A stretch of 64,000 nucleotides of DNA from an uncultured virus (IMG/VR IMGVR_UViG_2061766007_000322) (IMGVR_UViG_2061766007_000322); one strand, 5' to 3'; counted from the first letter of the stretch, positions 13,648 through 35,812 are shown. Notes: generated from the letters alone by a model not told the origin. Program-made: numbers and translations.

Positions 13648-13796
13648 TATATATTATTTTCGTAATAATGGTGTACATACAGTATTATGTATTACATATG
13701 TATGTATATACACATTATTTAATTTAGTCAGGCACATCCAATAAATGTGCCACATATATATCTTGTGGTGAAACACCACAAGGGAAGGAGTTTATT
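13648..13796 (+). promoter_or_regulatory. Class I promoter plus structured 5' leader (copy D, divergent)
   Basis: 13-mer at 13648; long hairpin; GGCACAT/ATGTGCC around CCAATAA; CTTGTGGTG-AAA-CACCACAAG; GGAAGGAG. Confidence 0.6.
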
Positions 13797-15001
13797 ATGA
13801 AAAAAGAAAAGAAGACTATCATCCCCACAGCAAGTGCTTTCAAAAACCGCCAAGATCTGACTTCTGTTATAATCCAAGATGGTGTGACAAGTATTGGAGA
13901 AGAGGCATTTCGTGGCTGTACAAACCTTATTTCTGTCACAATTCCTGACAGTGTGACTTATATTGGTGAAGGTGCATTTCGTGGCTGTACAAACCTTATT
14001 TCTGTCACAATTCCTGCCAGCGTTACAAGCATTGGAGAAGGTACATTTTGCGACTGTGCAAGCCTTACTTCTATCACAATTCCTGCCAACGTTACAAGCA
14101 TCGGAGTACGGGCATTTTGTGGCTGCACAGGTCTTAATTCTGTCACAATTCCTGACAGTGTGACTGATATCGAAGTCAAGGCATTTTGCAACTGTACGGG
14201 CCTTACTTCTATCACAATTCCTGACAGCGTTACAAGTATTGGAGAAGGTACATTTCGTGGCTGTTCAAGCCTTACTTCTGTCACAATTCCTGACAGCGTT
14301 ACAAGTATTGGACAAGGTGCATTTCATGGCNNNNNNNNNNTACAAGCATCAGAGAATGGGCATTTCGTGACTGTTCAAGCCTTACTTCTGTCACAATTCC
14401 TGACAGCGTTACAAGCATCAGAGAATGGGCATTTCGTGGCTGTTCAAGCCTTACTTCTATCACAATTCCTGACAGCGTGACTTATATTGGAAAAAGTGTG
14501 TTTCGTGACTGTTCAAGCCTTATTTCTGTCACAATTCCTGCCAGCGTTACAAGCATTGGAGAAGGTGCATTTCGTGACTGTTCAAGTCTTATTTCTGTCA
14601 CAATTCCTACCAGCGTTACAAGCATTGGAGAAGGTGCATTTCGTGACTGTTCAAGCCTTACTTCCGTTGTGATTCCTGACAGTGTAACAAGTATCGAAAA
14701 AGGGGCGTTTCAAGACTGCTCAAGCTTAACGTTTGTCACAATTCCTGACAGTGTGACTGATATCGAAAACAGGGTATTTTGCAACTGTTCAAGCCTTACT
14801 TCTATCACAATTCCTGACAGCGTTACAAGTATTGGACAAGGTGCATTTCATGGCNNNNNNNNNNAGCGCATTTCATGGCTGCTCAAGTCTGACAAGCAAC
14901 TGGTTCAAGACAAGATAACAACTTGTTATCTTGTTATGATAAAAAAAGAGAATCGTGCTATTAAAAAGCACGATTCTCTTTTTTTATTTAAATTATACTA
15001 A
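13797..15001 (+). CDS. BspA-type leucine-rich repeat (LRR_5) protein; one gene broken by N gaps
   Basis: 23-aa/69-nt repeats LTSVTIPDSVTSIGEGAFRGC; frame jumps coincide with N runs at 14331 and 14855. Confidence 0.85.
14942..14984 (+). terminator. Hairpin terminator
   Basis: AAAAAAGAGAATCGTGCT...AGCACGATTCTCTTTTTT. Confidence 0.75.
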
Positions 15002-15023
15002 TTACCAAAAAAATGCTAATAAT

Positions 15024-15036
15024 TATATATTATTTT
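15024..15036 (+). promoter_or_regulatory. Class I promoter TATATATTATTTT
   Basis: Exact 13-mer. Confidence 0.75.
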
Positions 15037-15104
15037 TCTGGAGTAAAGTTTCATATTTATGAATACTAACTTCATAAAAATTAATTTAAGAGGTGTTGAT
15101 ACAA

Positions 15105-15584
15105 ATGTCCAAGAAAAAGAAAAAAAAGAAACACAAAAGTAGTTATTACTACGAATATCCAGTAGTCTCTGACAAAGACTTGACTTATATGCTCTCTGGA
15201 GTTGATAAGACTATTGATAAGAGCTATAAGAGTTTGCTGGATGAAATCAAACAGTATCAGCTCGACATAAAAGTGTCTGATGTTGAGGCTGAGGAAAAAC
15301 AGAGGAAGAAATTGAAAAAAGAGCTTGGAGTTATTCCGTATTACTGTAGGAAAGAACAAGTTGAATCTCGTAAAAAGGTTCTTCAGGAAATGGAAGCAAG
15401 GAAAACTTTTGACAGAATTGAACTCGCATTCAAGAATATTGTTCCGATTGTAGTAGTGATAGCAAAACTTGTTGCGGCTCTTGTAACATCTATACTCGGA
15501 TTCAAGACGGCTATGGGGTATATAAATCCTACCACATTAAACAGGCTTAATACAATAAAGGGTATGGCATCAGCTATAACCTAA
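15105..15584 (+). CDS. Hypothetical membrane-associated protein with N-terminal poly-Lys
   Basis: MSKKKKKKKHK; hydrophobic IVPIVVVIAKLVAALVTSILG. Confidence 0.7.
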   Translation: MSKKKKKKKHKSSYYYEYPVVSDKDLTYMLSGVDKTIDKSYKSLLDEIKQYQLDIKVSDVEAEEKQRKKLKKELGVIPYYCRKEQVESRKKVLQEMEARKTFDRIELAFKNIVPIVVVIAKLVAALVTSILGFKTAMGYINPTTLNRLNTIKGMASAIT

Positions 15585-15602
15585 TAGTAAGAAGGTGATT
15601 GT

Positions 15603-16073
15603 TTGAAATTGTTTGCAGTAAAAAACTCAAACAATAACCTGATTGCATACCATGAAGATCTGGATGTGGTTGAAGAATATGTACGTAATATAAAGGTATC
15701 ACATCCAGATATAGACTTGGTGATTGGAAAAATATCTGAAAAATTCGTATACAAAAAAGACCCAACACATGAATTATATCTTGTGAGATATTCCCAAACA
15801 TATGTGCAATCAGGCTATTTGGTTTATCTCGAAGTAAATTCAAGTCAACATATCTATGATATGAAGTATTGTAAGGAAATCATTATTCGAACCATTAATC
15901 AATGGAAAGATGATTTAGATGAAAAAGATATAAAGTGTCTTAAGAAAGCCGCAAAGGTGTTTGATGAAATATTATTTGACGCTGAAACTTTTACACCATC
16001 TATATCTGAATTAAGATCAATGAAAGATATGATTGAACCTTATATGTATAACCGTGATGTATATTTTGATTAA
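15603..16073 (+). CDS. Hypothetical protein, distant family A-like N-terminus
   Basis: MKLFAVK...LIAYHED; TTG start after AAGGTG. Confidence 0.6.
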   Translation: MKLFAVKNSNNNLIAYHEDLDVVEEYVRNIKVSHPDIDLVIGKISEKFVYKKDPTHELYLVRYSQTYVQSGYLVYLEVNSSQHIYDMKYCKEIIIRTINQWKDDLDEKDIKCLKKAAKVFDEILFDAETFTPSISELRSMKDMIEPYMYNRDVYFD

Positions 16074-16081
16074 AGGAGTAG

Positions 16082-16363
16082 TTGGTTATGTCGAAAAAAA
16101 TTATTTATACTCATGATATTGCTGCTGGAATTGTTGATAAATTTGAAGATGTTTTAGTAGAGAACAATATCAGTGTACCGTCTCCCGATGACGATGACCG
16201 TTCAGATGAGGATAAACTCGGCTTATATGGTTTAACATACCATAGACTTGTTGAAGACGTTGAAGCCGAACTTGTCGAACTTATTGCAAAAGCTCGTAAT
16301 AGTAACGAAGATGCATATGATGTAATCTCTGATGTTTATGGTGGTTGTAAATATGATGAATAA
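16082..16363 (+). CDS. Hypothetical acidic protein
   Basis: 93-aa ORF, AAGGAG RBS. Confidence 0.65.
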   Translation: MVMSKKIIYTHDIAAGIVDKFEDVLVENNISVPSPDDDDRSDEDKLGLYGLTYHRLVEDVEAELVELIAKARNSNEDAYDVISDVYGGCKYDE

Positions 16364-16405
16364 TAAAAAATTTAAAAAAATACAAATAAGAAAGGATTAT
16401 AAAAA

Positions 16406-16630
16406 GTGAGTAATGCCGATAAAGTTGAATTAGATGGTATTGTGACACAAAAATTACATGGTGCTATGTTTGAAGTTACGTGTACCAACAACAATAAAAG
16501 TATTATAGTCACATGCACCCTTTCAGGAAAAATTCGCCAGAATAAGATACTTATATCTATTGGTGATAAAGTCAAAATCAATGTCTCCATATACGATATT
16601 AAAAGGGGAATACTCGTGTGGAGATACTAA
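16406..16630 (+). CDS. infA: Translation initiation factor IF-1
   Basis: VELDGIVTQKLHGAMFEV...LSGKIRQNKILISIGDKV...YDIKRGILVWR. Confidence 0.9.
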   Translation: MSNADKVELDGIVTQKLHGAMFEVTCTNNNKSIIVTCTLSGKIRQNKILISIGDKVKINVSIYDIKRGILVWRY

Positions 16631-16730
16631 TAAATTAGCTTAATATAGAAAGTTGAGGTAATGATATATATGATTGTATCATAGTCTTACCAAATGGTAA
16701 GAAATTACAAAATACCAAATAATAGAAAGT

Positions 16731-17579
16731 ATGAGGATTAATAATATGAATATAGATAATAAAAATGAACAGCAGATTTATAAATTGGATATGTTGTATA
16801 ACGAAGAGATTGAAAGATCTATTCGCCAGACAAGACATTATGTACGCGAAATATTTGAAGAAAATTATGAAAAACCGGAATGTAATAAATCTGGTATAAT
16901 AAGTCTTGTTAATATGACAACAAATGCCGCAATATTCGAAAATTCATCGAGAGGAAAAACTGTCGCGGCATTAAATTTTGCATCGTATAAAAATCCTGGT
17001 GGAGGATTTTTGAAAGGGCATGTTGGACAGGAAGAAAGTCTTTGTAAACACAGCACTCTTTATAATGTTCTCAGTGCATTTGCCGAGGACTATTATATAC
17101 CTAATAAACTTCATAGACTTAATGACGGACTTTATGAAGATAATCTTTTGTATTCGAAAGACATTGCATTTTTCTTGAACAAAAAATATGACAGATTTGT
17201 AAAATGTGATATTATCACGTGTTCGGCTCCAAATTTTTATGTCGCTTCGTCAAATGGTGTAACAAGAAATAAATGTTTTGACGTTCTTAAAAGAAGAATT
17301 GAGTTTGTTTACAAGGTTGCTTCAAACGAAGACGTCGATACTCTTATACTTGGAGCATGGGGTTGCGGAGCTGGAGAATGTATTCCAAGTGATGTAGCTG
17401 TTGCTATGTTTATGATGCTGGAAGATTACCGTTTCATGTTTGACAACATTATATTTGCTATACCTGGAGACACTATGGGTGAAAAATATAGCACTATTGA
17501 AAAGTGTTTTGATATACAGTTACAGGAAGATAGAATCCTTAATAGAAAAGACAGGATCCTTAATAGAAATTGCTATTAA
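16731..17579 (+). CDS. TIGR02452-family microbial PARG-like macrodomain protein
   Basis: LNFASYKNPGGGF...QEESLC, ITCSAPN, LILGAWGCG. Confidence 0.88.
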   Translation: MRINNMNIDNKNEQQIYKLDMLYNEEIERSIRQTRHYVREIFEENYEKPECNKSGIISLVNMTTNAAIFENSSRGKTVAALNFASYKNPGGGFLKGHVGQEESLCKHSTLYNVLSAFAEDYYIPNKLHRLNDGLYEDNLLYSKDIAFFLNKKYDRFVKCDIITCSAPNFYVASSNGVTRNKCFDVLKRRIEFVYKVASNEDVDTLILGAWGCGAGECIPSDVAVAMFMMLEDYRFMFDNIIFAIPGDTMGEKYSTIEKCFDIQLQEDRILNRKDRILNRNCY

Positions 17580-17610
17580 TAAATATAATCGTTGGCATAC
17601 AAATGTAACC

Positions 17611-17650
17611 GATGTGCGTCAGAGAAATTCTCTGACGCACATCTTTTTTA
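17611..17650 (+). terminator. Hairpin terminator
   Basis: GATGTGCGTCAGAGA-AAT-TCTCTGACGCACATC followed by a T run. Confidence 0.8.
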
Positions 17651-17710
17651 TCTTTTTAAAACACAATAATTTAAAGCGAATAATAAAAAGAAAGGAGTAT
17701 GTGAAAACAT

Positions 17711-20700
17711 ATGCTTGAATTATTTTATGAATCTGATATTACGGATGATTTATATATGCCTCAACATGTTAAAAATGCAAAATATACTTTAATAGAAAAG
17801 AAAAAATTTCTTGAAGAAGCTATAAAAAATGGCGGATATTATGGAGATAATGGATGTTGGAATTCTATTTTAGTATTTGATAATGATAAAAATATATATC
17901 GTGGAAGAGTTGAAACTCTTGTAATAAAAGATAATGAATATGTTTATTTAAAATTTTTACCGAAAGAATCTCAAAATGATAAAAGAAAATATACTATTCC
18001 AGGTGGTTCTTTTGAAAGAGATGTTCCTAATGATAAACAAGCTATTGCTGAGTGTGAAGAAGAAGCTCGTCTTAAAATAAAAAATATACAACCAACTGGT
18101 ATAACTTATAAAGATATAAAACCACCTCCGAGATGGGCTATAAATAAGCAACCTATAAATTGGAATGGTAATTATACCGAAGTATATGTTGGTACATATG
18201 ATGGAAAATTTACTGGTCACATAGATAAAGTTGATGAAGATAGATTTATGATTACTGGTAAATTCTATAAAATTGATGAAATATACAGATATCTTCGTAA
18301 AGAACATAAAGATGCCCTTAAAATTATTTATCCAGATAGGTTTGGACAAAATATAGTTGTAAGAGAATCTGGAAGTAGTAATAGAAAGTTTGCAAATGTT
18401 CCTTCTATAAAAGCTATGATTAAGAGAATTTATAGTAAAACCAAAAAAGAAGAAAAATTACCAACTGGAAATCAAAATTGCTTACTTTGCACTTGGTGTG
18501 TTGAAGCTTGGTTTAGAGGAATAGATATACTTCCACGAGCTGTATATAGTCCAACGGATAAAATATTTGATTTTGAAGGTTATGATATTATAAAACGACC
18601 GACAAAGATTACCATTGAAAACAAAGATGATATAAAGAAATTTATTTTAGCCGCTGGTGACAGGTCAAGGTTTTATGTTCATTTTAAATGGAAGAATGGT
18701 AATGGTGGACATGAATTTCTTTTAATAAATATTCGTGATGAAATTTATTTAATAGATGCACAGTCTAACATACTTGAAAAAATCACATCTCCAAAAGTAA
18801 GTAGTTACTTTAGAGATGTTGATTATGAAAAATCATTCATTGTTAGAGTAGATGATAAAGAAATAAATACATCAATGCTTAAATATAATGACATGGAACC
18901 AAAAGAATTTACACCAGAAGATATGAAATATATTCATGATAATGATCTTATCAAAAAAGAGTATACAGATATTGAAGGAGAGATTTCTATAAATGAATCA
19001 TCTGAATCTGTTTTTGACAAAATACTTAAACTAAATGATAGATTAAATGATTATGAATATATGATTCCAAATAATGGTAATCCTATAACACATATTAAAA
19101 ATGATGATTTTATAAAATATTATGTTCTATTATCACCTAATGAATTTGAGAAATATAAAGGTGGAGTATGTTGGGATTATGTTGCATATGAAGCAATGTA
19201 TTTTAGAGCAAAATATCCTAATATAAAATTCGAAACTTATTATCAGGTTATAGATAACCGAAATGATAATCCAACTCATACGTTCTTAATATTTGAATTT
19301 AATAAAAAATGGTATTGGTTTGAATCATCATGGAAACCAAATTGTGGTGTTTATGGCTTTAATAATAAAGACGATTGTATAGAATATATAATGCAGAAAT
19401 TAAGATTATCAGGTAAAAATTATGGTACTTATATTTGTAAATTTGATGCAACCGATGCAACCATGTATGGTATGAATTGTGTTGGATATATGAATTATAT
19501 GTCGTTTATGATTAAACCATATAAATTTACAAATAAGAAAATTGAACCTATATTTATTTATAAAGGGCATTGTCCAACCGATTCATCTCATAATAAATAT
19601 TATAGAATTTTATATGGTGGAATAGGTATATATGAAGCATTTAAGCGAATTGTTCCGATTAATGTGTGGTTGGAATTTAAAAAATCTACTGCATGTAAAT
19701 GGTTACCATTACCACCTAAATATGAAAATAATTATTATTCATATTTTACTTATGAAGGCTATAAAAAATTTATGGATTTAACTTATCCAAAAATGTTGAA
19801 ATATCTTAATAAAGATAAGATAGAAACATCAATAGTTGAACTCGATGAAAACTCTATAGTATATTCGGATGAATATCAAATTGTTGCTACAAATAATAAT
19901 TGTGTGATAGAATCTGAAGATAATTGCCCAGATGATAAGGAGTATACAATGGAATCTGTTATATTTAATAATAAAGATACTTATTATAACAAAGATAAAT
20001 TTGATTCAGGTGAAATAAATCTTTGCTTTATTACTGGATTTTCTGGTTCAGGTAAATCTACTATGGCTAATGAAATGGAAAAGTCTGGTATTGAAAAATA
20101 TGAACTTGATGATATCGCATTTCAATTTAATTTTTCTGATGAGAATTTAAAAGAATATGGTGGAATGATATATTCGTTCTTTAATGGTCCTGGTAAAAAA
20201 TACAGAGCTGTTAAAAGTATTAATGATTTAAAGACCGATAAAGAAGCTGATGATTACCAAGCTAATATTTGTATTGATTTTATTGATTATGCTAAAAAGT
20301 ATGCATCTTCACATAAAGACAAAAAATTTGTTGTAGAAGGTGTAGAAATTTTTGGAGCATATATTGATAAAATCGAATCCCTTAAAGACTATGCTATCTA
20401 TATAAAAGGAACTTCTTTATTTAATAGCTATATAGGGTCTGCAAAAAGAGATAGTCAAGACGCTGAAACGAATTTTGGTAAATTTAAATCATTTATGAAA
20501 ATGATTGCATCATCAAGTAGATTTAAACAGTATCTAATATCAAATACAAGACTTAATAAAATCAAAAAGCAAATTAACGAGTATGTAACTGAATCCGAAG
20601 ATAAAAGCGAGCTTACAAAAGGCTTTAAATCAAAAACCAGCAATATTCAATATAAGACTTTATCAATAGATAATCCTGAAATATATGATTATCTTAAAAA

Positions 20701-21505
20701 TCATTTTTCCAAGAATAATCCTATGTGGGAAGGTGTAAAAGACTCTAAGACATATATGGATTGTTTTATAAATGGTAATAATACTCGTCATATAAAAAGA
20801 GTTGGTGAAGTTCTTATAAATAAAGCAAATGATGAAGTCATTGGATTTGAAGTTGTTGAAAAACCGAATAATTATCTTGCAATAGAAATTCCTGATAAAA
20901 AATGTCGTGGATATGGATTTGGTTCATTATTACTCGAAGATTCTATTAAGAAACATGGTTGTAAAAAACTTATTGTTGCAAAAGATAATAAAATTGCTAT
21001 AAAGATGTATACAAACAGAGGGTTTGAAAAAACTGGTGAATGCTTTGATGGAGAATATTGGCGTATGGAACTGAAAGAATCTGATTATACAGAAGCATCA
21101 TCGGAAAATCTTTTCCATGTATCATCTGTTAAACTTGCTAATACAACATTAGAACCAAGAATACCAGATAATTTCCTTGTAAGAAATGGTTATGAAGATA
21201 ATACAACTGAAAGAATATCAGTATGCAAATCTATTGATGATTGTCTGACAGCTATGTCAAGAAATCTTAAAAACAAAGATTTTTATGTATATAAGCTTAA
21301 GAATACAAATATCAAGAAGAAAACTCCATCTGTAAAAGAAGTACCTGATTCATCTATAACAAATGAAGTTTGGTTGTTAGAACCATCTGAGTTTGAATTA
21401 GTTGGAAAGATTCGTGTTACAGGTACAAAAGGTGATGGTTTACCATATACATATGGTGATAACACTGCCGAACTTTATAGATGGAAATGGTCTTATGTAA
21501 AATAA
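17711..21505 (+). CDS. Polyvalent multi-enzyme protein: Nudix, papain-fold peptidase, transglutaminase-like, ART-like, P-loop kinase, GNAT, ART-like
   Basis: PGGSFE...AECEEEARL; NQNCLLC/GGHEF/IDAQS; GGVCWDY/THTF/WYWFES; YYR..SYFT..DEYQ; ITGFSGSGKST; RGYGFGSLL..N..AIKMY..RGF; LFHVS..PRIP..RISV..EVW; CACA-N6-TAA at 17662. Confidence 0.75.
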   Translation: MLELFYESDITDDLYMPQHVKNAKYTLIEKKKFLEEAIKNGGYYGDNGCWNSILVFDNDKNIYRGRVETLVIKDNEYVYLKFLPKESQNDKRKYTIPGGSFERDVPNDKQAIAECEEEARLKIKNIQPTGITYKDIKPPPRWAINKQPINWNGNYTEVYVGTYDGKFTGHIDKVDEDRFMITGKFYKIDEIYRYLRKEHKDALKIIYPDRFGQNIVVRESGSSNRKFANVPSIKAMIKRIYSKTKKEEKLPTGNQNCLLCTWCVEAWFRGIDILPRAVYSPTDKIFDFEGYDIIKRPTKITIENKDDIKKFILAAGDRSRFYVHFKWKNGNGGHEFLLINIRDEIYLIDAQSNILEKITSPKVSSYFRDVDYEKSFIVRVDDKEINTSMLKYNDMEPKEFTPEDMKYIHDNDLIKKEYTDIEGEISINESSESVFDKILKLNDRLNDYEYMIPNNGNPITHIKNDDFIKYYVLLSPNEFEKYKGGVCWDYVAYEAMYFRAKYPNIKFETYYQVIDNRNDNPTHTFLIFEFNKKWYWFESSWKPNCGVYGFNNKDDCIEYIMQKLRLSGKNYGTYICKFDATDATMYGMNCVGYMNYMSFMIKPYKFTNKKIEPIFIYKGHCPTDSSHNKYYRILYGGIGIYEAFKRIVPINVWLEFKKSTACKWLPLPPKYENNYYSYFTYEGYKKFMDLTYPKMLKYLNKDKIETSIVELDENSIVYSDEYQIVATNNNCVIESEDNCPDDKEYTMESVIFNNKDTYYNKDKFDSGEINLCFITGFSGSGKSTMANEMEKSGIEKYELDDIAFQFNFSDENLKEYGGMIYSFFNGPGKKYRAVKSINDLKTDKEADDYQANICIDFIDYAKKYASSHKDKKFVVEGVEIFGAYIDKIESLKDYAIYIKGTSLFNSYIGSAKRDSQDAETNFGKFKSFMKMIASSSRFKQYLISNTRLNKIKKQINEYVTESEDKSELTKGFKSKTSNIQYKTLSIDNPEIYDYLKNHFSKNNPMWEGVKDSKTYMDCFINGNNTRHIKRVGEVLINKANDEVIGFEVVEKPNNYLAIEIPDKKCRGYGFGSLLLEDSIKKHGCKKLIVAKDNKIAIKMYTNRGFEKTGECFDGEYWRMELKESDYTEASSENLFHVSSVKLANTTLEPRIPDNFLVRNGYEDNTTERISVCKSIDDCLTAMSRNLKNKDFYVYKLKNTNIKKKTPSVKEVPDSSITNEVWLLEPSEFELVGKIRVTGTKGDGLPYTYGDNTAELYRWKWSYVK

Positions 21506-21510
21506 AATAT

Positions 21511-21544
21511 ATTGAGATGCACATGTTTAATTGTGTATCTCAAT
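21511..21544 (+). terminator. Hairpin terminator
   Basis: ATTGAGATGCACA...TGTGTATCTCAAT. Confidence 0.65.
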
Positions 21545-21557
21545 TATTATATATATT

Positions 21558-21694
21558 TATATATTATTTTGTAGAGTGATTGGTTACATATATCATTAAT
21601 CACTTATAAAAATTTGGCTTGAGACCCAGTAAGTTCTCCACTCATCATACAAGAGTGACGAAAACCGAATCTCGGTTATTAGGGAAAGGATAGT
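21558..21694 (+). promoter_or_regulatory. Class I promoter plus structured 5' leader (copy C)
   Basis: 13-mer; AGTGATT/AATCACT hairpin; TTGG/CCAG with GAGA/TCTC pseudoknot; CACTC/GAGTG; AACCGA/TCGGTT; GGGAAAGGA. Confidence 0.7.
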
Positions 21695-22177
21695 ATGAAA
21701 GAGCATGTTCTTAATGTTGTAACACTGGTTATTGATTCAATGATGAAATGTTACATTACCAGTAATGAAAAAACTGGTGATCCACATATCGAATTGGATA
21801 TGTGCGATGCTTCCAAAACAATATTGCATATTGCCGAAGCGTCTGAACTTTATAATGAGCTTCTTAATGTGTGGAAGTACAAAAATGCGGTAAAAAACGA
21901 AAAGACCCTTTCAGCATATGGTGTATCATGTCAGTTACCGGATAAACCGGCAAGTGAATATATTGACGACTCAATATCAGTTGATCAATTTGGACGTCTT
22001 ACATTAGATGTCACATCTTATGAAATTGATTTCCCGGAAATAAAATATATATTTGAAACGGTAAATGAGGCTATATCAAATGGTTGTATAATTGATGTGA
22101 AGAATCTTCGTGAGCAGTTAATCTATGAAATTAAAATTGGAAACTACTTTTATGGCGATGAGGGTGAAATAAAATGA
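21695..22177 (+). CDS. Paralog family B member
   Basis: SELYNELL...YGVSCQLPDKP...IDF...AISNGCIIDV, similar to 23507 and 24245. Confidence 0.7.
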   Translation: MKEHVLNVVTLVIDSMMKCYITSNEKTGDPHIELDMCDASKTILHIAEASELYNELLNVWKYKNAVKNEKTLSAYGVSCQLPDKPASEYIDDSISVDQFGRLTLDVTSYEIDFPEIKYIFETVNEAISNGCIIDVKNLREQLIYEIKIGNYFYGDEGEIK

Positions 22178-24031: not shown

Positions 24032-24045
24032 AAACTATAGTTAAA

Positions 24046-24091
24046 TATAAAATACGGTTATGTACTTTTATAGTACATAACCGTATTTTAT
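24046..24091 (+). terminator. Hairpin terminator
   Basis: ATAAAATACGGTTATGTACT/AGTACATAACCGTATTTTAT. Confidence 0.75.
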
Positions 24092-24102
24092 ATGTCAATA
24101 CT

Positions 24103-24244
24103 TATATATTATTTTTGTAATAAAGTGATAGAAGCTATAATATGGCGATATAATCTATCACAATCATTTTGGCACGCACAGCCATAACAATAGTGCTACC
24201 CATGCTCGGGTACTGGGGTAATAACCCTGGGGAAAGGAGCAATT
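24103..24244 (+). promoter_or_regulatory. Class I promoter plus structured 5' leader (copy B)
   Basis: 13-mer; GTGATAGA/TCTATCAC; TGGC/GCCA with GCAC/GTGC pseudoknot; ACCC-ATGCTC-GGGT; GGG/CCC; TGGGGAAAGGAGCAAT. Confidence 0.75.
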
Positions 24245-24739
24245 ATGAAAAACCTGTCAACAACTGAAAAAGAGATCATTGGTGAAATCATCTGTGCGAT
24301 GTTTGGAGAAAGAAGATGTGGAAAGCCTTCAAGATATAAAATCCAGTACATCAATGACTATTGCGTGACTCTGTGTATGAACTCGGAAGATGATCCGTTT
24401 CACTATGATATGGAAGCGTTAATCGATTTTGAGAGTAAACAGAGTGCATATCTGGGTATGTGTAGACTTGGATATGCGGCATGTGTTTCAAAGCCGGAAA
24501 AACCAATAGTAGATCCGGTTGTAGAGGACTATTTCCATGATATTAAACCTACAAACATCGGCGAGATCCAGTTCACAGTTCAGTTCCCTATAAACTTCAC
24601 TAACGTTATGTCAGTGATCAGCAAAGCTATTGAGTTGGAGAAAGTTGGTTTGAAAATTGATTACCTGAAACTTATGGAAATGATCGAAGACGATATAGCA
24701 GCGGGCAAGTACGACGTTGATGATAACGATTATATCTGA
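24245..24739 (+). CDS. Paralog family B member
   Basis: RLGYAACVSKPEKP...FPINF...GLKIDY...IEDDIAAGKY. Confidence 0.65.
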   Translation: MKNLSTTEKEIIGEIICAMFGERRCGKPSRYKIQYINDYCVTLCMNSEDDPFHYDMEALIDFESKQSAYLGMCRLGYAACVSKPEKPIVDPVVEDYFHDIKPTNIGEIQFTVQFPINFTNVMSVISKAIELEKVGLKIDYLKLMEMIEDDIAAGKYDVDDNDYI

Positions 24740-27826: not shown

Positions 27827-27859
27827 GCATAAGTTACATCTGAACAAATAAATCAAACC

Positions 27860-28251: not shown

Positions 28252-30612
28252 ATGACAAATATTTATGATACATCAATTCTCCCATATAACGGATATGATA
28301 ATACATATATGGAAAGTTTTGAAATTGACTCATGGAACAAATTTGTTGATGTGGCAATGGAATCTGTTGGAATGGATGATAATATAGAAATTAAGGATTT
28401 TCTTTATAAATATGCAGATTCTGTAGTTTATGAAAAAGCAATTAATCCAAATAGTGAAATTTCAAAATTACTTAAAGAAGCTAAAAATGAATATAAGACA
28501 AATTTAAAAAAAGCTCGTAAAGCTATTAAGACTGGTGATAGAGCGACTGCACATAAAGAAATTAATAACGCTATTTCTGCTCTTATGAAGGCTCAGAAAA
28601 GTTCCGAGAAAATTATGAAAGAAGATTCTACAAGTTTCAATTCTGCTATGGGATTTGTTGTAGTAACACTTATTGATTGTGCTAAACTTTTTCTTGTTAC
28701 ACTTGCTACTGGTGGTATTGGTACAGTATTTGTTGCTGGATATCAGGCTATCAAAGATATTGTAGCAGTTCTTCAATCATCTATGAATAAGAAAGATATG
28801 CAACCAGAAGATTATAATATGCTTTGGCTTAGACACAAGACTTTATATTCTAAACTTATTAAACAGCTTGAAGTATTTGATAAGTCTATTGATGACGCCG
28901 TTGATAAAGATACTGGAAAGAATACTGGTAACAACACATCTCTTAAGGATAAGGTTAGTGCTAAAGCCAAGGATATTAAATCTAAGATTGATACTAAAGC
29001 TGAGAATATCAAAGCAAAGTTCAAGAAGGAATCGGCTGATGAGGTTGATGAAAATGCCGCTTCTGTTGTAAGCTCATTATTACCTCAGGGTCAGGGTGCT
29101 TATGGTGTAAACGATGATACTGTAGAAGATATGGTTGATTCTGATGAGGATAATATTGATCAGTTTGAAAGAGATATTAAAGAATCTTATGATGAAAATA
29201 TCATTTATACAACTTCAATGATGTGTGAAGCCGGCGGAATTAAAGAAACCGCTGATAAAATTATTCAGAAGATTAAGAATATCGGTCATGGTAAAGACGG
29301 TGAAGTTCGCCGTAATGTTATACAGAAGGCATCCAAACTTCAGACTTCTATTATTCTCAATCAGATTCGTATGAAGGTTGAAGTTGCTAAAGATCCTAAG
29401 AATGGTAAAAATACTGCAACATATAAGAATGCTTTAAGAGAAACTATTAGACTTGAAAAGGACCTCAGAAAAGTTATTGGACTTATGAGTGATGTTGAAA
29501 AGGACGCATTTACAGCATTCTGTCGTGAACTTAGCAAGAGTTCAAAAGAAACGGAGACCACCATGGTTTCTGATGCAAAAGAAGCTCGTAAAGCTACTAT
29601 CACTACAAATCAGGGTGATGGTAAGAAAATTAATAAGAAGCTTGGTATTAAAACCGAAGCTGCTGATGATACAAAGAAAGATACAAAAGAAGCATCTGGT
29701 AATAATAAACTTAGTAAGATTTACTATACTCAGTTAGATCTTCTTGAAGCAAATCAGGAAGTTATCGTTTATAAAAGAGCTGGTATTCCTGATAAGATTG
29801 ATAAGAAGAGTGCTGAAAATATTAAGAAAATTGAAGAGAAGATTAAGGCTATGAAAGAATGTCTTAATCCTGCTGAGAAAGTTGCATTTACAGGATTTAC
29901 TTCTAAGGCACAGGGTATATATAATAAATATACATCTCAGGCTGTTAAGGAGATTACAAATTCTGAAGATGCAGATGATGCTGAGGCAACTCTCATTGAT
30001 ATTGTAGATCAGGAAAATGCTGAGATTGCTAAGATGTATCCAAAATATTTAGAGGATTATCTTGAGGAATCAGTATCTGATTATTATTCAGAAGCTGCTA
30101 ATATTGATAAGGAAATTCAAGAATATATTGATAGACTTAATGATAAAGGTTATAAAACATTATATTCTTCACCAGGTCATCAAAATATAAAAGCGAAAGA
30201 AGACCCAAATAAAGATGGAGTTTATTATGAAAAAATCTATAATGATGCAAGAATTATGTTTGATGATAAATATAATTTTGGAGTTGCTCCAAAATATTGG
30301 TATTGGAGACAAGTTGATGGTAAATCGTATCTTGATATCATTCCTATTACATTTAGCAGAGATAAAGATTCGAGAGATAAACAGTATGCTGAGTGGAAAA
30401 AGAAATATTTAAAATCTCTTAGTGACTGGATTGATGAATTGCCAGATGCTTCAGATAATGGTAAAAAGAAAGATGAATCTTATGATTCAAAAGGTAATGC
30501 TGAAGACATCGATACTACTGATAAAAATGATACAACTGAAGAAGAAGTTAAAGAAGTAGAAGAATCTGTAATGAGTAATTTATTTGCATCAATGGGTATG
30601 ATATATGGCTAA
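28252..30612 (+). CDS. Probable virion/head protein with many X-E|S/A motifs and a C-terminal Tyw3-like module
   Basis: YMESF, AMESV, IKESY, MCEAG, KTEAA, LEESV, YSEAA; IDKEI...LNDKGYKTLYSSPGH; GACA-N6-TAA at 28196. Confidence 0.6.
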   Translation: MTNIYDTSILPYNGYDNTYMESFEIDSWNKFVDVAMESVGMDDNIEIKDFLYKYADSVVYEKAINPNSEISKLLKEAKNEYKTNLKKARKAIKTGDRATAHKEINNAISALMKAQKSSEKIMKEDSTSFNSAMGFVVVTLIDCAKLFLVTLATGGIGTVFVAGYQAIKDIVAVLQSSMNKKDMQPEDYNMLWLRHKTLYSKLIKQLEVFDKSIDDAVDKDTGKNTGNNTSLKDKVSAKAKDIKSKIDTKAENIKAKFKKESADEVDENAASVVSSLLPQGQGAYGVNDDTVEDMVDSDEDNIDQFERDIKESYDENIIYTTSMMCEAGGIKETADKIIQKIKNIGHGKDGEVRRNVIQKASKLQTSIILNQIRMKVEVAKDPKNGKNTATYKNALRETIRLEKDLRKVIGLMSDVEKDAFTAFCRELSKSSKETETTMVSDAKEARKATITTNQGDGKKINKKLGIKTEAADDTKKDTKEASGNNKLSKIYYTQLDLLEANQEVIVYKRAGIPDKIDKKSAENIKKIEEKIKAMKECLNPAEKVAFTGFTSKAQGIYNKYTSQAVKEITNSEDADDAEATLIDIVDQENAEIAKMYPKYLEDYLEESVSDYYSEAANIDKEIQEYIDRLNDKGYKTLYSSPGHQNIKAKEDPNKDGVYYEKIYNDARIMFDDKYNFGVAPKYWYWRQVDGKSYLDIIPITFSRDKDSRDKQYAEWKKKYLKSLSDWIDELPDASDNGKKKDESYDSKGNAEDIDTTDKNDTTEEEVKEVEESVMSNLFASMGMIYG

Positions 30613-30862
30613 GCCGAATAATAAATCAGAAATAAACAAAGTTCGTGAAAAACTTTGGAATTGGATGATTAATGCAAATGGTCAAGAAAAATGGTTTTCT
30701 ATGAGAGCTGAAGCTATTGAAATTATTAAAAATGAAGCTATTAAAATTAAAGCTCAAAACGGTTATGTTACATATGCAGATTTACCTGATTGGGTTAAAT
30801 CTATGGCTATTGATCATATGTATTATCCAGAAGATGTTAAGTTAATACTTTATAAGATATAA
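30605..30862 (+). CDS. Hypothetical protein
   Basis: 85-aa ORF overlapping the upstream stop; terminator at 30869-30904. Confidence 0.6.
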   Translation: MAKPNNKSEINKVREKLWNWMINANGQEKWFSMRAEAIEIIKNEAIKIKAQNGYVTYADLPDWVKSMAIDHMYYPEDVKLILYKI

Positions 30863-30955
30863 AAATATACCAAGAGATGAATATATATTTATCTCTTGGT
30901 TTTTCTATCCCAAAACAAAAAAATAACTTAATAAAGTGTGAAAGGAAGTAATACT

Positions 30956-33900
30956 ATGAGTAATTTTTTTAATGAAATACTCAAGGGTAATATTCCTGAA
31001 GTAAACAATATCAATGAAAGTCTTGATATTGAGACTGATGGTGAAATTTTTACCGAAGCAGTATTTGCAGATAAAATACCATACATGAAAGTATTTCCAA
31101 GAATATTTAATTTACCTAAAGGAGAACCTTTTGGTAAAGGAATTATTTGTTTTTTATATAGTAGAAATATTGAAGATTCTATTAATAAAATGAGTAATCC
31201 TGTAAATGCTATTCCTGGAAATAGATTTTATTTTTATTATATTAATAATATTTACAAAGGTAAAATATATTCCAGAATGTATAAAAGACGTATTACAGAA
31301 AAACGTAAAGAAGTATATAGAAAAGTTCAAAACGATGTTCAATATATACATCCGTATAGGCCATTGTCTATTAATAAGAACGAGACAAAGAATATCTTTA
31401 TTGATTTATCAGAATATGTTAATATTTTTTTTACAACTATGCGTAAAATAAGTCCTAAAAAATATGTGGAAAACTATTGGACTTTCTTTAAATCAGTATT
31501 AAAGTCGTATGACTATCTTGATAATTATCATACAAAAATGATGCTTATCAATATTAATGAATTTAAATTTGAAAAAAATATTATTAAGAATTTGGATAAT
31601 CCGATGTACATGTTCTATTATACTTTATTCAGATATCCTGATTTATTAAATGATATAGATATAGATTTCTATTTTTATTCAGATGGAAAGGTTCTTAAGT
31701 ATAATCCTGTTAAAAATGGCACTGGAAAAGAAATATATCAGCAGTATAGAATACTTATGAAAAGATTGGCATCCACTGCAAGTTTTGAAATTAATGATAA
31801 AGAAGTTATTAAAGATGAAATTACAGAAAATGCTATTGAAAAGTATACTGATATAATTGAACACCCTGCAAAAAATCAATCTACTGCTATTTCAGAAAAT
31901 TCTGAAAATGATAATAATATTAAAGAAAGAATTGTGCAGAAAGTTGATAGTGTTCGTAAAGAAGTCGATATAGTTTTATCGGGTATTAATGAAGAAGAAT
32001 CTGAAGAAGTAAATCCAGATGATTTAAAAGATTTAATTGATACAAAAGTCGAAAACGAAATTAATGCTGATAGAGAGCTTATCAAAGATATCTATAATCA
32101 AACAAGTCGTCAAATTGTTCCTACGACACCTGTTTTATCTGCAAGAGATAAAATGCTTAAAGAAAAACAGAAGGATATTGTCATTAAAGGTACAACTATT
32201 GCAGATATCCAAAAAGTAAAAGCAGAACATGTACCTATTCCTGAAAAAGATATATCAAACTCAGTTAATACTACTAATAAGAATATGACTCATCTTAAAT
32301 TCCAAAATTTTGAAAAGGCGTATAATGAAAATGTAATGCCTCAGGATATAGTAAATGCAATTTTAGCTCTTAATAATAAATCTATTCCATTATTCGTAAG
32401 AGATATTAAAGTTGAAGACACTTCTGATGAGCTTAACTATAAAGAAACATATACAATACTTCTTGAAGATGTTAATAGGCAGAGACATACTGTAAAGGTT
32501 GATATACCTAAATTCCTTGAAGATAAATTTTTATATATTGGTGGTAATAAGAAAGTTATTAAAAAACAGAGCTTGTTATTACCTGTTACAAAAACAGATG
32601 CGGATACTGTTCAAATTGTAACAAATTACAACAAAATGTTTATTCGTCGTGTTGATACAAAGTCTGTATCATCTGTAGAAAGATTTAAGAAAGTCTTAAA
32701 AGATTCAGATGATTTAAAAAGATTTTTCGTATTCGGTTCTACTATAACAACAAATGTGGACTATGTAACAACAATTGAATATGATGAATTATCTAAAATA
32801 TTTATTACATTTAAAACTGATAGTTGTACTATATTCTTTAGCCAAAAAGAAGCGGAAGAATATCGCCAGGAACATAGAATTCAGGCTATTTCAAATGCAA
32901 TGTTTATTGGCGAAGAAAATGGAAAACCAATTTATATTAACACAGATGATCAGTTAAGTTTAGTCGGTCATAAGACTATAGTTGATATAATTCTTTCTCA
33001 TTTACCTGACGATGTATTAAAGAAATATTCTGGAACACATGCACCTAAAAGACTTATGTACACAAAAGTTAAAGTTATGGATCAGGATATGCCAGTAATT
33101 ATGCTCATATGTTTTTGGGAAGGATTTAGCGAAGTTCTTAAAAAAGCTAATGTAAAATATACTATATCTGAAACTCAACCTAAAACTCTTGGTACAAATG
33201 AAAATGTATTAAGATTTAAAAATTGTTGGATTACTTATAATGAAACTACTGGGCAATCATTACTTCTTAATGGTTTGAGAATTATTGATACAACGCAGTA
33301 TGATTTATCTGAAATGGATACAATGGAACCTTATGTAAGATATTTTGAAAAGATATTTGGTAAGGCTACGATTGGTAATGCTCTTCAGAACTTCTATGAA
33401 TTTTCTATTGATCCAATTACATTAGAAATTCTTAAGGATATTCATCTTCCGACAGATATAGTTAGTCTTATGATTTATGCTGTAAATCTTTTACAAGATT
33501 CACAGTTTGTTCCTGAAATTAATCAGGGATTATCGAGAATTCGTAGTAATGAGATTGTTCCTGCTATTCTTTATGAAGCACTTGCCAAAAATTATATACT
33601 TTATAAGAATTCTAATGGCAAAAAGAAATTTTCTATTCCACAAGATATAGTAATTAAGAATTTAATTGGTCTGAAAACGGTTGAAGATTATTCGACACTT
33701 AATCCTGTACTTGAGATGGAAACAATTCATGGTGTGTCTAATAAAGGTTTTCGTGGTGTTAACCTTGATGAAGCATATACTATGAAAAAGAGAGCATATG
33801 ATTCTTCTATGACAGGTATTATTGCACCATCATCATCACCAGACGGATCCGTTGGTGTAAACAAAGTTCTTACTATGGAACCAAGTATAACATCTGTTCG

Positions 33901-35209
33901 TGGATATGTCGATATCAAATCAGATAGACTTGACGAACTTAAAGATGTAAACTTGTTTTCACCAGGTGAATTATCAATCCCTCTTGGTGCTACAAGAGAC
34001 GATCCCACACGTTTAGGCCATGCTAATAAACAATCTAAGCATGTTATTCCTGTAAAAGATTCTTCACCAGTTCTTATTTCAAATGGCTTTGAAGAAGTAT
34101 GTAGATTTAAGTTATCCTCAGACTTCGTTGTTAATGCTGATGAAGATGGTGAAGTAATTGAAAAAGATGAAAAAAGACAGCTTATGATTGTAAAATATAA
34201 ATCTGGTAAATATAAAGCAGTTAATATTGGTAAGACAATTGTTAAAAATGGAGGCGGTGGTTTCTTCTTATCAAATCAGCTTGAAACTCATTTTAATGTA
34301 GGAGATAAGTTTAAGAAGAATGACTGTTTAGCATACCATAAAAACTTCTTTACTTCAGATAAATTTAATGACACAAGAATGAATATGGGTACACTTGCTA
34401 AAGTTGCCCTTATGTCAACATACCAGACTTTCCAGGATGCAACATTCATTTCACAAAGACTTGCTGATGCTGCTGCAACTGAAATTTGTTTCATGAAACA
34501 AGCTGTTATTGGTAAAAATTCAAATATTACATTTATGATTGAAGAAGGCCGAAATATTAATGTTGGTGACCCACTTATTCAATTTGATACATCATATAAT
34601 GATAATGAATTAAATGAGCTTCTTGCTGCTATTGGTAATGACCAAGTAAAAGATAAGATTATGGAAGAAGCAAGGAATACAATAAAGAGTAAATATTCTG
34701 GTGTTGTAGAATCCATTGAAATATATGCTACAGTTCCTCTTGAAGAAATGAGTCCTTCACTTAGAGCTATTTGCTCGAAGTACTATAAGAAGGTTAGTAG
34801 TAGAAACGCTTTATTGGAAAAATACGACCCCGAATCCAAGAATTCTGTTGTAAAATGTGGTATTCTTTGTAAAGAACCCAATCATCAAATTGAAGCTAAT
34901 AAATATGGTGTTATTAAAGGACAGAATGTTGAAGATTCTATTTTAATCAATTTCTATATTAAACATATGGAGCCTTTGGAGATTGGTTCTAAAATAGCAA
35001 ACTTTACAGCTCTTAAAAATACTATTGGTGAAATTGTACCTGAAGGATATGAACCATATAGTAGTTTTAGACCTGATGAAGTTGTTGATACAATGATAGC
35101 ATCAAACTCAATTCTTAAACGTATGACACCAAGCGTTACATTAACCGTACTTGGTAATAAATGCATAATTGAGTTAAAAAATAGACTTAAAGAAATTTAT
35201 GATAAATAA
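30956..35209 (+). CDS. Phage multisubunit RNA polymerase beta-like subunit (probably virion RNAP)
   Basis: YIGGNKKV, NPVLE, SSPDGSVG, DDPTR...KQSKH, QDATFIS, IGSKIA..ALKNTIG, SILKRMT; long N-terminal extension with INES/FTEA; AACA-N6-TAA at 30914. Confidence 0.9.
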   Translation: MSNFFNEILKGNIPEVNNINESLDIETDGEIFTEAVFADKIPYMKVFPRIFNLPKGEPFGKGIICFLYSRNIEDSINKMSNPVNAIPGNRFYFYYINNIYKGKIYSRMYKRRITEKRKEVYRKVQNDVQYIHPYRPLSINKNETKNIFIDLSEYVNIFFTTMRKISPKKYVENYWTFFKSVLKSYDYLDNYHTKMMLININEFKFEKNIIKNLDNPMYMFYYTLFRYPDLLNDIDIDFYFYSDGKVLKYNPVKNGTGKEIYQQYRILMKRLASTASFEINDKEVIKDEITENAIEKYTDIIEHPAKNQSTAISENSENDNNIKERIVQKVDSVRKEVDIVLSGINEEESEEVNPDDLKDLIDTKVENEINADRELIKDIYNQTSRQIVPTTPVLSARDKMLKEKQKDIVIKGTTIADIQKVKAEHVPIPEKDISNSVNTTNKNMTHLKFQNFEKAYNENVMPQDIVNAILALNNKSIPLFVRDIKVEDTSDELNYKETYTILLEDVNRQRHTVKVDIPKFLEDKFLYIGGNKKVIKKQSLLLPVTKTDADTVQIVTNYNKMFIRRVDTKSVSSVERFKKVLKDSDDLKRFFVFGSTITTNVDYVTTIEYDELSKIFITFKTDSCTIFFSQKEAEEYRQEHRIQAISNAMFIGEENGKPIYINTDDQLSLVGHKTIVDIILSHLPDDVLKKYSGTHAPKRLMYTKVKVMDQDMPVIMLICFWEGFSEVLKKANVKYTISETQPKTLGTNENVLRFKNCWITYNETTGQSLLLNGLRIIDTTQYDLSEMDTMEPYVRYFEKIFGKATIGNALQNFYEFSIDPITLEILKDIHLPTDIVSLMIYAVNLLQDSQFVPEINQGLSRIRSNEIVPAILYEALAKNYILYKNSNGKKKFSIPQDIVIKNLIGLKTVEDYSTLNPVLEMETIHGVSNKGFRGVNLDEAYTMKKRAYDSSMTGIIAPSSSPDGSVGVNKVLTMEPSITSVRGYVDIKSDRLDELKDVNLFSPGELSIPLGATRDDPTRLGHANKQSKHVIPVKDSSPVLISNGFEEVCRFKLSSDFVVNADEDGEVIEKDEKRQLMIVKYKSGKYKAVNIGKTIVKNGGGGFFLSNQLETHFNVGDKFKKNDCLAYHKNFFTSDKFNDTRMNMGTLAKVALMSTYQTFQDATFISQRLADAAATEICFMKQAVIGKNSNITFMIEEGRNINVGDPLIQFDTSYNDNELNELLAAIGNDQVKDKIMEEARNTIKSKYSGVVESIEIYATVPLEEMSPSLRAICSKYYKKVSSRNALLEKYDPESKNSVVKCGILCKEPNHQIEANKYGVIKGQNVEDSILINFYIKHMEPLEIGSKIANFTALKNTIGEIVPEGYEPYSSFRPDEVVDTMIASNSILKRMTPSVTLTVLGNKCIIELKNRLKEIYDK

Positions 35210-35214
35210 AAAAA

Positions 35215-35247
35215 TGAGGGCTGTGCTTGGCAATAACACAGTCCTCA
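35215..35247. terminator. Bidirectional terminator between convergent genes
   Basis: TGAGGGCTGTG...CACAGTCCTCA. Confidence 0.7.
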
Positions 35248-35281
35248 AATTTACATTCAGATATTGGCTCGTTGTTTTTTA

Positions 35282-35671
35282 TTAGATGGGCTCTGTACAG
35301 AACTCCATCCCTGGAACAACGAGCCAATAGCGGATTTCAGCACCATCCGGGAGAGATGTTGCACCCTCCGCCAACCTTGGACCCGAATACTGAGCTACCA
35401 GGGCAGTATCGCTGATCTTACCGCGTTCTACACCACTCAGTTTAATGCTGACGCGGTTCATAGGTATTGCCATTTCAAGCTGATCACTAACGATTTTAGC
35501 CATGTCCGCATGACCGATTGCACTCACAATGTTGGCTGCGAAGCTGCCTGTAGTAGTACGGCTGATATACTTCTTCACTTCTTCGATTGACATAGGAATG
35601 AAATCCACCATGGTACCTCCCTCAGGAAGCATATTGATACTAAACGCGTTCGTTATAAAAAGGTTTGACAT
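35282..35671 (-). CDS. acrIII-1: DUF1874 / STIV B116-like anti-CRISPR ring nuclease (AcrIII-1 family)
   Basis: ITNAFSINML, VSAIGHADMA (catalytic GH), MNRVSIKL, VAQYSGPRLAEGAT. Confidence 0.85.
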   Translation of the reverse strand: MSNLFITNAFSINMLPEGGTMVDFIPMSIEEVKKYISRTTTGSFAANIVSAIGHADMAKIVSDQLEMAIPMNRVSIKLSGVERGKISDTALVAQYSGPRLAEGATSLPDGAEIRYWLVVPGMEFCTEPI

Positions 35672-35812
35672 GATTGCTCCTTTCCCCAGACTTTCGTCCA
35701 GTCACCCGAGCATGAGTGGTGTATTTATTGGCTACACGGACCATAATATGTAAATGACAGATATAAACGCCTTATATAAGCATCCGTCATTTTACTACAA
35801 AAATAATATATA
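35672..35812 (-). promoter_or_regulatory. Class I promoter (35800-35812) plus structured 5' leader (copy A)
   Basis: ATGACGGAT/ATCTGTCAT; TGGT/GCCA with GTGTA/TACAC pseudoknot; CACTC-ATGCTC-GGGTG; GAC-GAAA-GTC; TGGGGAAAGGAGCAAT. Confidence 0.75.

Follow-up and report, generated by a model that had tools for sequence, protein, structure and literature searches.

The window considered here, a stretch of 64 kb with a GC content of 29.8% from an uncultured virus (IMG/VR record IMGVR_UViG_2061766007_000322), carries four genes that stand behind copies of one structured 5' leader, in cassettes referred to below as A to D. The four leaders are homologous, and in all of them four collinear hairpins have been kept through compensatory changes. 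An initial annotation of this DNA had described four genes with such a leader directly behind a promoter, and this is borne out in four out of four cases. Each leader directly follows an exact copy of the 13-mer box TATATATTATTTT; the stretch between this box and the ATG measures 128 nt in A, 129 nt in B, 124 nt in C, and 136 nt in D.

Three of the cassettes are on the plus strand. Cassette D has its promoter box at 13648..13660 and its leader at 13664..13796, followed by two open reading frames (ORFs) for BspA-type leucine-rich repeat (LRR) proteins at 13797–14480 and 14477–15001 (Pfam LRR_5, E 2e-57 and 5e-42; GC 42.7% and 38.5%), within which there are short N-masked stretches. Cassette C, with its box at 21558..21570 and its leader at 21574..21694, leads into a 160-aa ORF at 21695..22177 that has no Pfam or PHROG family (GC 33.3%) and is the first gene in a run of small ORFs reaching 24031. 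In cassette B the box is at 24103..24115, the leader at 24119..24244, and the 164-aa ORF at 24245..24739; this ORF likewise has no Pfam or PHROG family (GC 38.8%), and a search of the ESM Atlas gave no usable match for it.

Cassette A is on the minus strand, with the box at 35800..35812, the leader at 35672..35796, and a gene for a 129-aa DUF1874 / AcrIII-1-type protein at 35282..35671 (GC 47.4%). The protein matches the STIV_B116-like/DUF1874 family PF08960 (E 1e-8, 35.7 bits against a cutoff of 26) and the STIV B116 entry 2j85 in the PDB (E 9e-5), with the GH motif aligned. By these matches it is a DUF1874/AcrIII-1 homologue, for which a ring-nuclease function is predicted. The leader-bearing genes are the GC-rich ones, at 33–47% against 29.8% for the window, as had been judged by eye from the outset. 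Their products had been called unrelated, which holds for the LRR_5 proteins, the DUF1874 protein, and the two proteins without a family; the tie that had been drawn between the genes at 21695 and 24245, as a 'family B', comes down to a BLASTP match with E 0.034 only.

When each copy is folded separately, the order of elements is the same in all four leaders: a long 5' hairpin (P1), then P2, P3, and P4, the last of which adjoins the Shine-Dalgarno (SD) sequence, and then the ATG. P2 is a hairpin of 4–6 bp with the loop (N)CCA(A/G)UAA(R). P3 has 5 bp, CACUC/GRGUG in A and C and UACCC/GGGUA in B, and P4 has 6–9 bp and ends 0–4 nt 5' of the SD. The order of hairpins first proposed is therefore collinear for P1 to P4 in every copy, except that P3 in D is of 4 bp only and competes with P4. 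Single-sequence fold z-scores are modest, at -3.76 for D, -2.21 for A, -1.79 for B, and -0.79 for C.

In leader D, P1 is at 13664–13719, P2 at 13731–13751 (GGCACA/UGUGCC, loop UCCAAUAAA), the weak P3 at 13751–13767, P4 at 13762–13782, and the SD, GGGAAGGAG, at 13782–13790. In leader C the corresponding positions are 21574–21605 for P1, 21621–21638 for P2 (GAGA/UCUC, loop CCCAGUAAGU), 21639–21657 for P3 (CACUC/GAGUG), 21663–21677 for P4, and 21682–21691 for the SD, GGGAAAGGAT. Leader B has P1 at 24125–24161, P2 at 24176–24196 (GCAC/GUGC), P3 at 24197–24212 (UACCC/GGGUA, loop AUGCUC), P4 at 24213–24230, and the SD GGGAAAGGAG at 24230–24239. Leader A, read on the minus strand, has P1 at 35795–35750, P2 at 35737–35719 (GUGUA/UACAC, loop GCCAAUAAA), P3 at 35718–35703 (CACUC/GGGUG, loop AUGCUC), P4 at 35701–35686 with a GAAA loop, and the SD GGGAAAGGAG at 35686–35677. 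A common SD before the ATG had been claimed for all four leaders, and the exact GGGAAAGGAG is found in A and B only. The P3 loop AUGCUC and the tail TGGGGAAAGGAGCAAT are indeed common to A and B. A and D have the same P2 loop, CCAAUAAA, on stems that differ, which suggests that the loop may make an additional, sequence-specific contact.

Pairwise identity between the leaders is 53–70%, with A and B 70% identical to one another and C and D 53–62% identical to the other copies. In a MAFFT alignment of the 3' domain (A2), 81% of the cells are paired and both sides have changed in 7 of the 16 pairs. None of 500 shuffles of this alignment reaches the observed percentage of pairing or the covariation score, and controls with slid partners are 21–46% paired. 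Within P2, 89.5% of the cells are paired and 3 of the 5 pairs are doubly changed, and within P3 this is the case for 2 of the 5 pairs, so that it is P2 and P3 that carry the covariation signal.

A search with a covariance model, suggested along with the initial annotation, separates the four leaders clearly from the rest of the window. The model built from the same alignment (R1) scores 92.1 bits for A, 80.2 for B, 76.6 for D, and 65.5 for C, and the next match in the 64 kb has 13.7 bits (E 0.86). Since nothing else exceeds this score, the window contains four copies and no more.

It might be argued that the copies are repeats at the level of DNA only, through recent duplication or as recombination homology resembling that of the T4-type promoter-early stem-loop elements (PeSLs), and that the RNA fold has no function. 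The cassette boundaries do fall at repeats, A and B have 70% of their bases in common, and the T4-type PeSLs function as DNA recombination sites according to published accounts (PMC2839356, PMC4122927). Homologous recombination requires identity, however, and the diverged copies C and D retain every helix by compensatory changes, which argues against this explanation and leaves it very unlikely. Among the strain differences listed, one alone falls in a leader: by 35785 C>T, seen in two DNA runs, a G-U pair in P1 of leader A becomes A-U. The leader families of two other jumbo phages, described below, keep their helices too. These observations would support selection on the RNA fold, beyond the identity of the DNA.

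The initial annotation had placed the pairings GTGTA/TACAC in A, GCAC/GTGC in B, GAGA/TCTC in C, and GGCAC/GTGCC in D within an H-type pseudoknot. The pairings are present and covary, and those in B and C are exactly at the positions first given (24176/24193 and 21621/21635), but they form the nested hairpin P2, which is no knot by itself. A pseudoknot would arise if the UGG 5' of P2 paired with the CCA of the P2 loop, and could then be the functional core of the leader, acting as a switch or enhancer. Three to four such pairs are possible in A, B, and C, where the inner pair is U-G in A and C-G in B, and by eye the geometry is compatible with the H-type (2–3 nt in loop 1, 0–1 nt in loop 2, and 5–8 nt in loop 3). 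P2 alone is also weak in A and C, at -2.9 and -1.8 kcal/mol, and strong in D, at -5.1 kcal/mol, which is the copy without the UGG.

Yet none of the four pairs of the UGG/CCA stem is doubly changed, and three of the four are broken in D, which has UAG in place of UGG. A nearby 3-bp complement to CCA is, in addition, easily had by chance. The fact that the CCA is retained in D despite the loss of its partner, within a loop that is still the same as that of A, would suggest that it is conserved for another reason. While a pseudoknot is possible in three of the copies, it is unsupported by the comparison of the sequences, and that it should be the functional core of the leader is doubtful.

The 13-mer TATATATTATTTT has nine exact sites in the window, and 15 sites with no more than one mismatch, where 3.25 would be expected and none of 100 shuffles reaches 15. 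Its 10-mer core TATATATTAT has 12 exact sites against 2.67 expected; in 10 of the 12 there is a purine at the place of the AR9 transcription start (+1), with 1.46 sites expected for the whole pattern. The early promoter of phage AR9, used by the virion RNA polymerase, has the consensus AAATATATATTAT-(6N)-G(+1) (PMC5312081). The box in the window holds the same core, with (A/T)TT where AR9 has AAA upstream, and the +1 purine is 7 nt 3' of TATTAT. As the core equals the published one, the leader promoters are, by sequence, AR9-type early boxes of the kind used by a virion RNA polymerase. Sigma-70-like promoter matches in the region are at background, with 124 found and 111 expected.

The predicted +1 is A 13664 in cassette D, G 21574 in C, A 24119 in B, and A 35796 in A, and P1 starts at +1 in C and D, at +2 in A, and at +7 in B. 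Given a start 7 nt after TATTAT, as in AR9, P1 would be a 5'-terminal stem-loop. There is an ATG, GTG, or TTG at +5 to +7 in every copy, opening an ORF of 9–21 codons, and the leaders might accordingly be thought to encode short upstream peptides. These starts have no SD upstream and are only 4–6 nt from the predicted 5' end, the peptides of A and B have about 5 of 20 residues alike (by eye) despite the 70% DNA identity, and the length and the stop position vary among the copies, all of which makes upstream peptides extremely improbable.

There are five other exact boxes in the window, at 6505 and 10974 on the minus strand, at 15024 and 26951 on the plus strand, and at 52942 on the minus strand. 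They have AT-rich genes downstream, and their leaders are unrelated to the four-copy leader, four being short and that at 26951 long and different. The leader behind the box at 26951 (26951–27289, plus strand) is of about 325 nt and contains a tandem repeat of about 42 nt; one sequencing run is without one repeat unit (27014 to 27056), and in another the box is followed at once by divergent sequence with a short leader. A second exact core box at 35843–35852 on the plus strand (region 35843–35859) is opposite in direction to cassette A and points toward a plus-strand start at about 35946, so that it would form a divergent early promoter pair with the cassette A box.

Within 13000–28500 there are 12 terminator-like hairpins, where 3.7 would be expected, and several of these are just 5' of promoters. 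The promoter of cassette C is preceded by one at 21511..21544 (plus strand), and that of cassette B by a 49-nt palindrome at 24045..24093 (plus strand), a hairpin and then a T-run, identified from the sequence and by self-BLAST. Further hairpins just 5' of promoter boxes are at 14940–14986 and 26910–55, and there is no obvious terminator hairpin upstream of cassette A. In the case of cassette D, part of the upstream hairpin region is hidden by the N-masked run just 5' of it. The masked runs in the window are 3805–3828, 13567–13603, 14331–14340, 14855–14864, 22535–22544, and 24841–24850.

Contigs from four public runs were compared with 16001–36000 at a likeness of at least 88%. The match breaks off at four points, beyond each of which the contigs continue into unlike sequence: two are 6–8 nt 3' of the ATGs of B (24253) and A (35664), and two immediately follow promoter boxes (21569 and 26967). 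One contig connects 24248 to 24761. Divergence at these points, after the promoter or the ATG, would mean that the same leader is joined to other coding sequence, in other strains or in other copies. Further, 50 nt from the 3' end of gene B recur without a mismatch at 24791–24840, ahead of a strong terminator hairpin at 24851–24882, and this second copy looks like a recombination scar. In one DNA run, a contig skips 24766–24851.

The window also encodes a 1423-aa protein that resembles the beta subunit of multisubunit RNA polymerases (phrog_3148 'RNA polymerase beta subunit', E 3e-157), in line with promoters of AR9 type. Virion proteins and a 3750-aa ORF are encoded as well. The closest matches to a structural protein of the window are to jumbo phages only, of the AR9/PBS1, phiR1-37, Staphylococcus S6, and Fusobacterium JD-Fnp kinds, at identities of no more than 27%, and the polymerase protein is 38–55% identical to those of the nearest IMG/VR records. 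Among GenBank phages there was no match by megablast of 13400–25000 or by blastn of leader A. Near-identical DNA is found in 16 sequencing runs that hold at least half of the sampled words, and some part of the window is present in 20 runs from 15 studies, those with a label being from bovine gut or from bovine or gut metagenomes (for the habitat, run shares below 0.2 were left aside). An SPP1-type holin is encoded, which together with the strong SD sequences hints at a host of Gram-positive type. A scan of the window for tRNA and tmRNA found none.

The early operon that starts at the promoter at 15024 includes, at 16406–16630 (plus strand), an ORF whose 74-aa product matches IF-1 / eIF-1A, a translation initiation factor (PF01176, E 1.2e-12), and would be a phage-encoded OB-fold factor for RNA binding or translation. 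At 16731–17579 (plus strand) there is a microbial-type PARG catalytic domain (E 9e-27), and after it, at 17711–21505 (plus strand), the gene for a 1264-aa protein that weakly matches P-loop/STAND-like and GNAT domains; these two ORFs have the look of an early block for host takeover or anti-defence. Genes for dCTP deaminase-like, DHFR, and thymidylate synthase proteins are present on the minus strand at 6700–7350 and 58669–60149, a nucleotide-metabolism set typical of large phages.

The leader had been put forward as an unrecognised and undescribed RNA, and the databases agree with this. The whole window has no match in Rfam 15 at gathering thresholds, and the four leaders searched in E-value mode gave noise, the best match, to mir-965, reaching 25.8 bits where 43 are required and being on the terminator palindrome, with no family common to the four leaders. 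Nor was the leader found with R1 in 19 loci of RNA polymerase relatives (355 kb; best 16 bits, E 1), in 10 whole viral records (best E 0.136), or in any of six other viral loci with AcrIII-1 homologues.

Pattern searches gave a similar result. In IMG/VR, the promoter 18-mer has 75 matches, single and scattered; the promoter and SD pattern has three, all of which are chance on reading; the A/B-specific pattern has none; and of the seven matches to the P2-loop, CCAC, and SD pattern none scores with R1. Among metagenome contigs, the promoter and P2-loop pattern has no matches and a looser pattern is present at no fewer than 120 loci, of which 120 were scored with R1; the best, whose helices are broken, reached 16–16.5 bits, and no locus makes a credible copy. 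The two pattern matches in GTDB genome contigs are both chance on reading.

A 5' UTR (untranslated region) of several hairpins adjoining the ribosome-binding site (RBS) could be taken for a riboswitch or other ligand-sensing leader, responding for example to a nucleotide signal relevant to anti-CRISPR. The P3 loop does complement the RBS region in A and B (UGCUC:GAGCA) and in C (CAUAC:GUAUG), where a sequestering pseudoknot could form. This complementarity is absent in D, has a chance of 0.02–0.05 per copy for random loops, and was chosen post hoc. In addition to the lack of an Rfam match, there is no terminator, with no U-tract after any hairpin in the four leaders, and no conserved anti-SD helix. 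The 10 relatives' full records, 25 further loci, and 7 viral and 120 metagenome pattern matches contained no homologue, a restriction to one phage that is unlike the known riboswitch classes, and the cargo genes are without a common metabolic theme. A riboswitch is highly improbable on this evidence, and the ribozyme or riboswitch reading raised with the initial annotation finds no support: none of the conserved helices sequesters the SD or forms a terminator, and the searches gave a homologue nowhere but in this phage.

The principle of a multi-copy structured leader does recur in other jumbo phages. One of these, G006 (IMG/VR record of L227, 231,846 bp), has a different leader of about 135 nt in three copies with 100, 83, and 75% identity (178006–178161, 129134–129259, and 168586–168731, all on the minus strand). 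Downstream of the copies are the gene for the AcrIII-1 homologue and two small ORFs, the three being unrelated. In this leader, 6 of the 28 predicted pairs are compensated.

The nearest complete relative of the window phage, G003 (IMG/VR record of L078, 250,395 bp), has the same promoter core at 26 sites. Its leader is of about 170 nt and is present in eight full copies, each between a TATATA(T/C)TAT-type box and one of eight ORFs of 46–311 aa, with ATGs at 12373, 13322, 14322, 91321, 131612, 132340, and 133564 on the minus strand and at 103553 on the plus strand; by eye, two or three of these ORFs have a common N-terminal segment. The G003 leader has GUAAUAA at the predicted +1, where a 27-bp P1 opens, then two further hairpins, and at its end a hairpin with the SD in the loop and a stem that covaries. 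A 20-mer core of this leader occurs four times in a second IMG/VR contig (85 kb). When the window leaders were compared with the G003 leaders by nhmmer, only the promoter matched, with no other detectable sequence in common. G003 also contains a four-copy repeat of about 180 nt with 80–82% identity, at 71283–71460, 144432–144607, 144916–145094, and 171519–171697, a family that is possibly one of introns or of another structured RNA.

The explanation favoured here, and given an even chance of being correct, is that a lineage-specific paralogous structured 5' leader and an AR9-type early promoter, usually with a terminator hairpin, make up a portable cassette for foreign GC-rich accessory genes. 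Transcription would start 7 nt after TATTAT, making P1 5'-terminal, and the leader RNA would act in cis, with P1 shielding the 5' end from decay. P2 to P4 would fold independently and keep the SD and ATG in a fixed context whatever the cargo, which would mean that any captured ORF is expressed early and predictably. The conserved promoter-leader DNA may double as homology for the exchange of cargo between phages. The leader itself is probably a stabiliser or a translation-context insulator. A portable cassette like the PeSLs had been proposed with the initial annotation, and it fits the terminator-like hairpins upstream, the unrelated GC-rich cargo, the points at which the contigs diverge, and the analogous leaders in two jumbo phages. 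Taken as a whole, what was first observed is partly confirmed, and what was first made of it is partly supported.

There are several points that weigh against the portable cassette as described. The leader is found in no relative searched, and so in one phage species so far. The four sequences come from one genome and are related by descent, which makes the covariation statistics weak. P4 is poorly aligned in A2, with 62.5% of its cells paired, and a realignment based on R1 left its register unrepaired, so that the conservation of P4 rests on the per-copy folds. The +1 is taken from AR9 by inference, and contigs from RNA libraries can show neither starts nor transcription; the two such runs (X18 and X20) have patchy contig cover, in 19 of 30 and 8 of 30 bins, from which no conclusion on expression or ends was drawn. 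The accessibility of the SD is predicted to be intermediate, the mean unpaired probability of 0.26–0.66 from the partition function being uninformative. The loose ends of the contigs, at a likeness of at least 88%, could belong to other leader copies or to related phages and not to allelic swaps of cargo. Finally, leader A shares the loop CCAAUAAA with D and the loop AUGCUC with B, in each case over diverged stems. A pure stabiliser or insulator would have no need of such identity, which would indicate a specific partner.

The main rival to the cassette, and one that is compatible with it, is that the leader is an RNA operator, whose loops or hairpins are read by a trans-acting factor of the phage or host that co-regulates the translation or decay of early anti-defence genes. 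The conservation of the loops over stems that covary would be in keeping with this, as would the presence of an AcrIII-1 homologue among the cargo and of the PARG and IF-1-like OB-fold RNA-binding proteins among the early neighbours. There is also a precedent in Aca2 and Aca1, which bind RNA in acr 5' UTRs, by prediction at several operons (PMC13551039). Against an operator, none of 50 window proteins has a helix-turn-helix (HTH), ribbon-helix-helix, or other known regulator family in Pfam, the window being a minor part of the genome; there is no gene behind the AcrIII-1 gene within its transcription unit; and at about 125 nt and four hairpins the leader is far larger than the Aca motifs. On balance an operator is possible and rather unlikely.

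The same idea can be extended to jumbo phages at large, with the leader as the operator of an early anti-defence regulon, a phage factor reading the loops CCAAUAA and AUGCUC to time translation or decay, and each lineage having co-evolved a leader and factor pair of its own. This wider version is unlikely; candidates for the factor would be an Aca-like protein encoded outside the window or the IF-1-like OB-fold protein at 16406–16630. If it were true, the shared leader would flag the BspA-LRR proteins and the two family-less proteins of the window as candidates for anti-defence or host takeover, and likewise eight unknown small ORFs in G003 and two in G006.

At the level of RNA, little is understood of jumbo phages that carry RNA polymerases of their own, including the way in which newly acquired genes come to be expressed. 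The portable cassette would offer a concrete mechanism for the domestication of foreign genes, by reuse of a promoter-leader module, in parallel with the T4 PeSLs and with a component of RNA structure in addition. The leader could also be used as a genomic marker for accessory and anti-defence genes in uncultured jumbo phages. An AcrIII-1 homologue is marked by it here, and G006 independently has its AcrIII-1 homologue behind its own multi-copy leader. As compact 5' UTR parts that do not depend on the cargo, such leaders may be of use in engineering expression in phages and in Firmicute-type systems.

The leader appears to be undescribed in Rfam and in the literature searched, where the only conceptual relatives are the AR9 UTR motifs, the PeSLs, and the Aca RNA motifs. 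Stem-loops at the 5' end are known to stabilise mRNA in E. coli ompA, B. subtilis ermC and aprE, the phage SP82 leaders, and the STAB-SD of cryIIIA, and these resemble the window leaders in having a stable hairpin a few nt from the 5' end and a strong polypurine SD nearby. They are elements of single genes, however, whereas the window leader occurs as a family of several copies, in which three further hairpins and the loops are conserved too.

In AR9, the 5' UTRs are 26–491 nt long, and shared motifs of unknown function have been predicted in the early UTRs (PMC5312081). The likeness to the window lies in the promoter core TATATATTAT and in the purine start 7 nt downstream; the window phage is distant from AR9, with its structural protein no more than 27% identical.

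For the anti-CRISPR systems, a published report describes Aca2 as binding two hairpins in the acr-aca 5' UTR and blocking the RBS, Aca1 as binding an RNA motif, and the Aca motif as predicted 5' of several neighbouring operons, some of unknown function (PMC13551039). The hairpins of leader A are similarly placed, between the predicted transcription start and the RBS of the DUF1874 gene, as Aca motifs are at acr genes. Compared with what is described there, the window differs in having no aca or HTH gene among its proteins, in an element that is much longer and lies behind a phage RNA polymerase promoter in a jumbo phage, and in that the promoter DNA shows no evident inverted repeat, for which no systematic search was made.

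The closest known system is that of the T4-type PeSLs. According to their descriptions, these combine a terminator hairpin with an early promoter, are conserved over about 100 bp, and occur in multiple copies before non-essential ORFans in plastic regions, where genes are inserted, deleted, and replaced between related phages with crossovers mapped between the -10 box and the ATG (PMC2839356, PMC4122927). The window has the same arrangement of multi-copy terminator-promoter modules before ORFans, and these may likewise act as crossover points, judging from the divergence of contigs that may represent alleles or other copies. As described in those sources, the PeSLs differ in having a sigma-70-type promoter, a short leader, and a stem-loop that is the terminator, whereas the promoter here is the AR9-type box of a virion RNA polymerase and the conserved part is a transcribed leader of 125 nt, in which four hairpins have been kept by compensatory changes.

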